Shown here in pieces: positions 1-3,000 of a DNA stretch of 26,099 nt. The position numbers were made by a program. How positions within the stretch are numbered: the first letter of the stretch is position 1; each line of letters starts with the position of its first letter. This DNA comes from a virus (taxonomy: Duplodnaviria > Heunggongvirae > Uroviricota > Caudoviricetes): IMG/VR virus record IMGVR_UViG_2526164602_000011, positions 1-26,099 of that record; one strand, 5' to 3'.

Positions 1-3000
1 AAAAGAAGCCGGATTACTGGCATCAACAGGGAGTACAGGCGACTCGTATGACAACGCGATGGCTGAGAGCATCAATGGTCTTTACAAAGCGGAGGTAATA
101 CACCGTAAGAGCTGGAAAAACCGTGCAGAAGTGGAACTGGCCACACTAACGTGGGTGGACTGGTATAACAATCGACGATTGCTGGGAAGGCTGGGCCATA
201 CTCCTCCGGCAGAAGCAGAAAAAGCTTATTATGCTTCCATCGGAAACGATGATCTGGCAGCCTGAGTTCACAGATAAAACACTCTCCAGGAAACCCGGGG
301 CGGTTCACTGCCTGATGGTGGCCTTTATTTTTGGCATAAACAACAGAATAAACACAGCACTGTGTATTCATTCCAACGAGTGAATACACGGAGCAATGTC
401 GCTCGTAACTAAACAGGAGCCGACTTGTTCTGATTATTGGAAATCTTCTTTGCCCTCCAATGTGAGGGCGATTTTTTATCTGTGAGGATATGAACAGATG
501 TCAAACATCAAAAAATACATCATTGATTACGACTGGAAAGCATCAATAGAAATTGAAATCGACCATGACGTAATGACAGAGGAAAAACTTCACCAGATTA
601 ATAATTTCTGGTCAGACTCTGAATACCGACTCAATAAACACGGCTCTTTATTAAATGCTGTATTAATCATGCTGGCGCAACATGCTCTGCTTATAGCAAT
701 TTCAAGCGACTTAAATGCATATGGTGTTGTGTGTGAGTTCGACTGGAATGATGGAAATGGTCAGGAAGGATGGCCTCCAATGGATGGTAGCGAAGGAATA
801 AGAATTACCGATATCGATACATCAGGAATATTTGATTCAGATGATATGACTATCAAAGCCGCCTGAGCGCGGCGTTACCGCATACCAATAACGCTTCACT
901 CGAGGCGTTTTTCGTTATGTATAAATAAGGAGCACACCATGCAATATGCCATTGCAGGGTGGCCTGTTGCTGGCTGCCCTTCCGAATCTTTACTTGAACG
1001 AATCACCCGTAAATTACGTGACGGATGGAAACGCCTTATCGACATACTTAATCAGCCAGGAGTCCCAAAGAGTGGATCAAACACTTATGGCTATCCAGAC
1101 TAAATTCACTATCGCCACTTTTATTGGCGATGAAAAGATGTTTCGTGAGGCCGTCGACGCTTATAAAAAATGGATATTAATACTGAAACTGAGATCAAGC
1201 AAAAGCATTCACTAACCCCCTTTCCTGTTTTCCTAATCAGCCCGGCATTTCGCGGGCGATATTTCCACAGCTATTTCAGGAGTTCAGCCATGAACGCTTA
1301 TTACATTCAGGATCGTCTTGAGGCTCAGAGCTGGACGCGTCACTACCAGCAGATCGCCCGTGAAGAGAAAGAGGCAGAACTGGCAGACGACATGGGAAAA
1401 GGTCTGCCCCAGCACCTGTTTGAATCACTCTGCATCAATCATTTGCAACGCCACGGGGCCAGCAAAAAGCCATTACCCGTGCGTTTGATGACGATGTTGA
1501 GTTTCAGGAGCGCATGGCAGAACACATCCGGTACATGGTTGAAACCATTGCTCACCACCAGGTTGATATTGATTCAGAGGTATAAAACGGATGAGTACAG
1601 CACTCGCAACGCTGGCAGGGAAGCTGGCTGAACGTGTCGGCATGGATTCTGTCGACCCACAGGAACTGATCACCACTCTTCGCCAGACGGCATTTAAAGG
1701 TGATGCCAGCGATGCGCAGTTCATCGCATTGTTGATCGTCGCCAACCAGTACGGCCTTAATCCGTGGACGAAAGAAATTTACGCCTTCCCTGATAAGCAG
1801 AACGGCATCGTTCCGGTGGTGGGCGTTGATGGCTGGTCCCGCATCATCAATGAAAACCAGCAGTTTGATGGCATGGACTTTGAGCAGGACAATGAATCCT
1901 GTACATGCCGGATTTACCGCAAGGACCGCAATCATCCGATCTGCGTTACCGAGTGGATGGATGAATGCCGCCGCGAACCATTCAAAACCCGCGAAGGCAG
2001 AGAAATCACGGGGCCGTGGCAGTCGCATCCCAAACGGATGTTACGGCATAAAGCCATGATTCAGTGTGCCCGTCTGGCCTTCGGATTTGCTGGTATCTAT
2101 GACAAGGATGAAGCCGAGCGCATTGTCGAAAATACCGCATACACTGCAGAACGTCAGCCGGAACGCGACATCACTCCGGTTAACGATGAAACCATGCAGG
2201 AGATTAACACTCTGCTGATTGCCCTGGATAAAACATGGGATGACGACTTATTGCCGCTCTGTTCCCAGATATTTCGCCGCGACATTCGCGCATCGTCAGA
2301 ACTGACACAGGCCGAAGCAGTGAAAGCTCTTGGATTCCTGAAACAGAAAGCCTCTGAACAGAAGGTGGCTGCATGACACCGGACATTATCCTGCAGCGTA
2401 CCGGGATCGACGTGAGAGCTGTCGAACAGGGGGATGATGCGTGGCACAAATTACGGCTCGGCGTCATCACCGCTTCAGAAGTTCACAATGTGATAGCAAA
2501 ACCCCGCTCCGGAAAGAAATGGCCTGACATGAAAATGTCCTACTTCCACACCCTGCTTGCCGAGGTTTGCACCGGTGTGACTCCGGAAGTTAACGCTAAG
2601 GCGCTGGCCTGGGGAAAACAGTACGAGAACGACGCCAGAGTCCTGTTTGAGTTTACTTCCGGCGTGAATGTTACTGAATCCCCGATCATCTATCGCGACG
2701 AAAGTATGCGCACCGCCTGCTCTCCCGATGGTTTATGCAGTGACGGCAATGGCCTTGAGCTGAAATGCCCGTTTACCTCCCGGGATTTCATGAAGTTCCG
2801 GCTCGGTGGTTTCGAGGCCATAAAATCGGCTTACATGGCCCAGGTGCAGTACAGCATGTGGGTGACACGAAAAGATGCCTGGTACTTTGCCAACTATGAC
2901 CCGCGCATGAAGCGTGAAGGCCTGCATTATGTCGTGATTGAGCGGAATGAAAAGTACATGGCGAGTTTTGACGAGATGGTGCCGGAGTTCATCGAAAAAA

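Follow-up and report, generated by a model that had tools for sequence, protein, structure and literature searches.

The window, that is, the whole stretch of 26,099 nucleotides (nt) analysed here (IMG/VR record IMGVR_UViG_2526164602_000011), is the whole of contig AKLW01000053.1 of assembly GCA_000267165.1, a 2012 draft genome of Escherichia coli O157:H7 strain TW11039. It carries a segment of a lambdoid prophage of Shiga-toxin type in which gam, the gene for the RecBCD inhibitor Gam, is broken in frame: a single A is missing from a run of six. This is a true break in a known gene, and chance resemblance can be discounted. As for its cause, the missing A is probably a local consensus error in the draft contig and not a change in the bacterium. 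The alternative to such an error is a private pseudogene, of an ordinary kind for a prophage in decay; in both cases the system itself offers nothing new.

The frame break in gam

All coordinates are those of the whole stretch, and gam was read from either the GamL start codon (ATG at 1170) or the GamS start codon (ATG at 1290). From both starts the translation is authentic through ...HGASKK and is followed by 53 out-of-frame residues. The shifted frame ends at a stop codon at 1629-1631, 38 nt inside bet, the ATG of which is at 1591. The sequence agcaaaaagcc is located at 1461-1471, and the A run within it has five As (A5). In the -1 frame from 1469, the remainder of the protein (AITRAFDDD...DIDSEV, 38 residues) is encoded and ends at the natural TAA at 1583-1585. 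The features of the gene are as follows.

1170-1631, + strand: gam open reading frame (ORF) as written, from the GamL ATG; 100 authentic and 53 out-of-frame residues (translation)
1290-1469, + strand: GamS start codon and 60 in-frame codons ending ...HGASKK (translation); positions 1-62 of the 98-position Pfam Gam profile
1464-1468, + strand: A5 run; all relatives with clean assemblies have six As (A6) here (alignment to relatives)
1466-1469, + strand: in-frame A_AAG tetranucleotide that arises through loss of the A; GCC would be the next codon if tRNA-Lys slipped by -1 (sequence)
1469-1585, + strand: -1 frame segment, Gam residues 101-138 and TAA; holds D107, E111, E114, E118, and E125 (translation; contacts from PMC9836394)

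The missing base became evident when the window was aligned with phage Stx2a_WGPS8 and strains F8798, 7409, AR-0427, and ECC-1470: these relatives read AGC AAAAAA GCC, whereas the window reads AGC AAAAA GCC. An earlier note on this DNA, written from the sequence alone, had placed a change of frame after HGASKK at the A run (1461-1471) and had proposed a comparison with related genomes; translation confirmed the break at these coordinates, and the comparison gave A6 at the same locus in each relative named above. The note was also correct in assigning the authentic C-terminal residues to the -1 frame, but their number is 38, not 37.

The identity of the gene is supported by profile and structure matches. 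The ORF as written matches the Pfam Gam family (PF06064) at positions 1-62 of 98 and has no full-length match in one frame, whereas addition of one A gives a match over positions 1-98. The repaired protein aligns end-to-end with lambda GamS (PDB 5mbv, 2uuz) with an E value of 2e-59, and 92 of the 98 residues are identical. In addition, the genes on the + strand at 498-3050 are in the left-operon order of a lambdoid phage, that is, ea10 (DUF2528), cIII, kil, gam, bet, and exo, so that kil and bet are the neighbours of gam in a pL-type operon. It is therefore the same gene in the same operon place as that for lambda Gam (GamS, 98 amino acids (aa); GamL, 138 aa; PDB 2UUZ/2UV1, RecBCD complex 5MBV). 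The difference is that the deposited ORF runs out of frame after GamL residue 100 and lacks residues 101-138.

Rarity of the five-A run and the changes around it

The shortened run is a singleton among comparable sequences. In a collection of 15 billion proteins with an index of 153 billion genes, the shifted 113-aa product, which is named "gam [Escherichia coli TW11039]" in GenBank, was found on one contig, whereas the repaired 98-aa GamS of the same amino-acid haplotype was found on 622. Among the matches listed from 5,426 finished E. coli genomes (3,857 places), no exact full-length match to the 81 base pairs (bp) around the site was present; every full-length match listed spans 82 bases and therefore has A6. 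No full-length exact match to the 81 bp was found among 179 phage records, either. The A5 pattern was found 0 times in IMG/VR, against at least 120 occurrences of the A6 pattern, and 0 times in the GTDB species representatives.

The closest relatives, F8798, PV15-279, and AR-0427, are all A6. An intact Gam of 98 aa is annotated in all of the closest relatives, among them AR-0427 and F8798; the composite prophage of F8798 is the same as that of the window. A lesion inherited as a pseudogene would be common to clonal relatives; none of the relatives examined has it. A change in homopolymer length that is absent from independent related assemblies is what an artefact would give, and the shift from A6 to A5 is of this kind (one contig against 622). 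It should be mentioned that a search for clonal relatives of TW11039 by a second marker of this contig, the CIII substitution N45S, returned only the contig itself.

This second marker belongs to a cluster. Two further singleton changes are located just upstream of the broken run.

1072-1215, + strand: kil, with start codon GTG instead of ATG through A>G at 1072 (singleton)
1265, + strand: T>C singleton; synonymous change within the GamL leader, located 25 nt before the GamS ATG (alignment)

The change at 1072 also gives the N45S substitution in cIII (939-1103). CIII with N45S is on one contig in the protein index, the window's own, whereas normal CIII is on at least 1,000, and the variant is absent from IMG/VR and from finished genomes. 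None of 1,102 places in finished E. coli genomes has the T>C change at 1265, and IMG/VR lacks it as well. The best finished-genome match to 1045-1300 keeps exactly two mismatches, 1072 and 1265.

The two substitutions and the deletion lie within 392 bp and are the only novel bases among the contig differences checked. All other checked differences from F8798 or EDL933 are common alleles: 7314G occurs in 512 finished records, more than 10,000 index blocks list each of the DUF1382 and TraR variants from a patch at 3376-4195, and position 19072 is the same as in EDL933. Four isolated changes, namely 1072, 1265, the deletion, and 7314, are absent from both F8798 and EDL933. By our own rough estimate, in which the events are taken as independent, three of these four would come to lie in a span of 392 bp out of 25.8 kb with a probability of about 0.003; with a realistic genome-wide count of private mutations, the probability would be far lower. 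The haplotype of the region is also unusual. At positions 1070, 1072, 1265, 1437, the A run, and 1587, the window reads G, G, C, A, A5, and A, whereas F8798 reads A, A, T, A, A6, and G, and the common type reads G, A, T, G, A6, and A. The window haplotype is thus a mixture of the alleles of two paralogue types with three novel bases. The three clustered changes need a common cause. Gene conversion was considered as such a cause and rejected, as a donor is in none of the collections searched.

The same run is shortened elsewhere in public data. The 90% cluster of the shifted protein holds two other products broken at the same point, on other allele backgrounds: P0015 (82 aa, in 95 index blocks) and P0002 (113 aa, from a Logan assembly). 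Eleven loci were fetched through the protein index; all 11 have A5, and their backgrounds differ from that of the window. Most of them have 3-12 further one-base insertions or deletions (indels) in 1.2-3.7 kb when compared with finished references, almost all at homopolymers and CCWGG (Dcm) sites. This pattern is the signature of uncorrected long-read base-calling. One of the loci (L136) is, apart from this A, 99.96% identical to the prophage of ATCC 25922, and the finished genomes of identical background (ATCC 25922, DSM 30083, and NU14) are all A6. The sole metagenome match with A5, from the Joint Genome Institute (JGI), has 17 gap openings in 3.6 kb. The A5 assemblies (loci L128-L138 and L140; e.g., L130:3170-3174) are from NCBI, ENA, Logan, and the one JGI metagenome, and 0 of the 12 other A5 loci inspected came from an assembly shown to be clean. 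The A6 run of gam is thus a recurrent miscall site. The 82- and 113-aa "Gam" entries that its miscalls seed in public databases are spurious.

Origin of the missing base

The TW11039 genome comprises 5.6 Mb in 71 contigs, and the strain is available from BEI Resources (PMC3593324). In that project, strains were sequenced either by Illumina alone (assembled with Velvet) or by Illumina and 454 FLX/XLR together (hybrid assembly with Celera), and the strains form two groups by contig count, 47-71 and about 400-1,300 (PMC3593324). The paper gives no route for each strain; judging from the contig count, TW11039 is probably an Illumina and 454 hybrid assembly.

The kil-gam-bet region is present at 2-4 places per genome in O157, and at 2-3 places in the closest finished relatives of the window. 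At least one Illumina draft examined has a contig starting inside bet, and the region is therefore repeat territory. In this multi-copy region, a piece of about 400 bp appears to rest on a very small number of reads or on reads of poor quality. This piece would carry a homopolymer under-call from A6 to A5 and two transition errors, and the affected span would be about that of one 454 read. In that case, gam in the bacterium would be intact and of the ordinary lambda type, with GamS (98 aa) and GamL (138 aa) as the two forms of the RecBCD inhibitor. Two A:T-to-G:C transitions together with a -1 change in a run are the classic error spectrum of a polymerase or of emulsion polymerase chain reaction. 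A local consensus error explains all three clustered changes. From the deletion, its singleton status, the cluster, and the proneness of the run to error, we infer that a read or consensus error was the cause.

The lesion resembles known homopolymer errors of pyrosequencing and nanopore sequencing in two respects: one base is lost from a 6-nt run in a single draft assembly, and the same run is shortened in at least 12 other public loci, most of them with deletions at CCWGG sites or homopolymers. It differs from them in that the contig has no other indel in 25.8 kb and the companion changes are substitutions, and in that the project joined 454 with Illumina data, where such errors should be rare.

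Several observations weigh against a consensus error. The window from 308 to 26099 matches F8798, the nearest finished genome, at 99.9%, with one indel and 26 substitutions in 25,793 aligned bases, and that one indel is the gam deletion. The 37 remaining runs of 6-8 identical bases in the window are all of the same length as in relatives. A 454 consensus with errors throughout would look different from this contig, and Illumina reads, if they contributed to the consensus, should have given A6 correctly. Substitution errors are unusual in consensus sequence. Furthermore, the other public cases of A5 are errors of nanopore type, a chemistry other than 454. Lastly, two of the three singletons, the kil start codon and the gam frame, would lower expression of host-toxic genes, which selection could also yield. 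The earlier note had left the choice between a recent single-base event and a homopolymer sequencing error; this alternative was rightly drawn, and the evidence now leans to error by virtue of the singleton status, the cluster of read length, and the recurrent miscalls. If the deletion is an error, frame-shifted gam calls in draft or long-read genomes should not count as biology.

A possible but less probable explanation is that the deletion is real, recent, and private to TW11039. Replication slippage in the A6 run would have made gam a pseudogene in a decaying, composite prophage that is interrupted by an insertion sequence (IS) and has no int. Some of the points just given speak for it: the lesion is the only indel of the contig and longer runs are intact, and the neighbouring singleton substitutions, one of which weakens the kil start codon, are not homopolymer artefacts. 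The prophage shows other signs of decay, too. An IS1203 insertion precedes the affected pL operon, and the composite prophage has neither int nor xis adjacent to it; both are absent between exo and the late genes. The elements upstream of kil and gam are the following.

1-307, + strand: right end of IS1203/IS629, upstream of ea10 and in the same orientation as the pL operon; the contig starts inside the IS
450-471, + strand: terminator-like hairpin and T run, between the IS end and ea10 (sequence)
890-909, + strand: terminator-like hairpin and T run, between ea10 and cIII/kil/gam (sequence)

Resident lambdoid prophages of E. coli O157:H7, such as the Sp prophages of strain Sakai, show gene decay. 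The window resembles them in its frame-shifted accessory gene, its IS629/IS1203 element, and the loss of int and xis through fusion to a right end of 933W type. Inherited prophage decay is normally common to related strains, however, and the window lesion is in no relative examined. It is carried by none of the about 3,860 gam copies in finished genomes, nor by any clean public assembly examined. With no other novel base in 25.8 kb, three independent private mutations in 392 bp are also implausible, and no donor allele for recombination is known. Selection against toxic kil and gam would cover only two of the three changes and would need expression of the operon in the lysogen. As the selective force, IS-driven toxic expression is argued against by the two intact terminator-like hairpins between the IS and kil/gam. 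Read-through from IS1203 into kil and gam, with selection for their inactivation, was thus not adopted.

The consequences of a real deletion can be described from known structures. Gam is a dimeric, acidic mimic of DNA that fills the duplex-binding arm of RecB and inserts its N-terminal helix into the channel for 3' single-stranded DNA (PMC5218532). The tabulated ion pairs with RecB involve Gam residues D48, E51, E65, E68, D73, D107, E111, E114, E118, and E125 (Table 1, PMC9836394). The last five of these, the acidic residues of the C-terminal part that contact the RecB arm, are all encoded at 1469-1585, after the break, and are absent from the ORF as written. Together with the Pfam coverage of only 1-62 of 98, this would fit a gene that had lost its function. 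The product would keep the N-terminal helix region (GamL 41-100) and lose residues 101-138, and with them half of the acidic, DNA-mimicking contacts with RecB. Because residues 101-138 with these contacts are lost, the product as written, judged by its sequence, should not inhibit RecBCD.

Bet and Exo would still be made. Ribosomes that translate the shifted frame and end 38 nt inside bet could alter initiation of Bet. Moreover, further gam copies could supply Gam in trans, since the closest finished relatives have 2-3 matching places per genome. The suggestion of the earlier note that the element would have recombination functions without RecBCD inhibition is thus sound for this copy of the operon but overstated for the cell. 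A real deletion would add one more private pseudogene to the many lambdoid prophages of O157:H7, and it would probably be masked by the further gam copies. Its sole consequence would concern the shielding by this copy of its own linear DNA from RecBCD after induction.

That the frame break is real but leaky is very unlikely. In this explanation, a -1 slip of tRNA-Lys on the A_AAG tetranucleotide at 1466-1469, where AAA and AAG are codons 59-60 from the GamS ATG, would occur in a small share of ribosomes and give a low dose of wild-type Gam in the manner of a "savior indel". After the slip, GCC ATT ACC... would be read, and the product KKAITR... would be identical to that of the intact allele. 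No tetramer shifts more readily in E. coli than A_AAG (PMC5009743; PMC4066793), and a cell has only about 10 copies of RecBCD (PMC9836394). Against this, tetramers without a stimulator average 0.147% frameshifting, compared with a background of 0.112% (PMC4066793); A_AAG is the most efficient tetramer when a strong pseudoknot is present, and frequencies there are up to 5.6% (PMC4066793). The region 1440-1560 (121 nt) folds like its shuffled sequences (z = 0.10), and its centroid structure is almost unpaired. No stimulatory structure was found in this fold, an upstream stimulator of Shine-Dalgarno type not having been formally tested. The arrangement is conserved nowhere (3,857 places of the listed matches, 179 phage records, and 0 in IMG/VR), and selection is not indicated.

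The window resembles the known cases of -1 frameshifting on A_AAG (dnaX with A_AAA_AAG, IS3, IS1222, and cdd of Bacillus subtilis) in that the tetramer is in frame and the -1 product is full-length. It differs from them in lacking a downstream structure, an X_XXZ first triplet (the heptamer is C_AAA_AAG), and conservation. A programmed -1 frameshift was thus not supported: the motif is present without a downstream stimulator or conservation.

Still more doubtful is a reading in which the deletion, the ATG-to-GTG change of kil, and the change at 1265 are all real and represent coordinated down-tuning of two host-toxic pL genes in a domesticated prophage, with a trickle of Gam made by slippage on A_AAG. 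Such a trickle could titrate part of the approximately 10 RecBCD per cell on induction, and it would be too low for toxicity or for triggering abortive systems that guard RecBCD, such as retron Ec48.

The least credible explanation, an inherited A5 polymorphism of an O157 or Stx prophage lineage, might seem to gain from P0015 and P0002, which have the same break; those loci are on different allele backgrounds, most with many one-base deletions of long-read type, while the finished genomes of identical background (ATCC 25922, DSM 30083, and NU14) and the closest relatives of the window (F8798, PV15-279, and AR-0427, the last with an IS at the same site) are all A6. A lineage-wide A5 allele is effectively refuted, as finished E. 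coli genomes, phages, IMG/VR, GTDB representatives, and JGI metagenomes give A5 only in error-ridden assemblies.

Neighbouring genes and prophage layout

The two genes downstream of gam and the largest gene of the window are as follows.

1591-2376, + strand: bet, intact, 261 aa (comparison with lambda Bet)
2373-3050, + strand: exo, intact, 225 aa; like that of F8798, it lacks the last Arg of lambda Exo (comparison with lambda Exo)
8321-16741, - strand: giant ORF of 933W-type phages, 2,806 codons; in relatives the annotation is LPD38 domain-containing protein, 2,793 aa

Residues 1-177 of Bet are identical to those of lambda Bet (7ujl), and Exo is identical to lambda Exo at 219 of 225 residues, which bears out the previous description of both proteins as full-length and near-identical to those of lambda. 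Exo ends in ...GEQW followed by the stop codon (3045-3050); it is one Arg shorter than lambda Exo, and the same end is found in F8798.

The IS at the left end of the contig (1-307) is 100% identical to the IS in strain 7409. It ends 8 bp short of the end of a small hypothetical gene that in F8798 is located between N and ea10. In AR-0427, an IS3-family element is inserted at the same point plus 3 bp (AGG), whereas in strain 7409 IS1203 is located 142 bp further upstream than the IS of the window. In both AR-0427 and 7409, gam is intact and the bet/exo allele is different from that of the window. The site may be a hot spot for insertion, or the absence of the 3 bp may mark an IS-mediated rearrangement. 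The two hairpins at 450-471 and 890-909 flank ea10, at the positions where pL-operon terminators overridden by N would be expected.

In the composite prophage, no int or xis is present between exo and the late genes, and F8798 has the same layout. At 3787-8320, the pL operon, with its TraR/DksA-like and ea22-like genes, runs directly into a right-end module of a 933W-type Stx phage, in which hok, a ygiW-like gene, the giant ORF, and tail genes on the minus strand are found. No int, xis, or att site was seen at this junction (3787-8320). In EDL933, the part common with the window (from 6424) is the end of 933W that adjoins ymdF/rutG. The arrangement looks like a fusion of two prophages via TraR/ea22 repeats. 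Two toxin genes of the Hok/Gef family are present in the one prophage segment, at 7151-7306 (+ strand) and 19966-20106 (- strand); both positions were carried over from the annotation of F8798.

At its right end, the contig stops in a tail-fibre gene, and the variants nearest this end belong to a very common paralogue. A patch of four single-nucleotide polymorphisms at 25775-25794 switches the C-terminal tail-fibre gene to the allele of this paralogue, which is in 9,634 index blocks and elsewhere adjoins an NleB/SseK effector gene. The patch is either real mosaicism or drift of the assembly into a repeat. Both ends of the contig, in IS1203/IS629 and in the tail-fibre gene, are typical of repeat-bounded contig ends.

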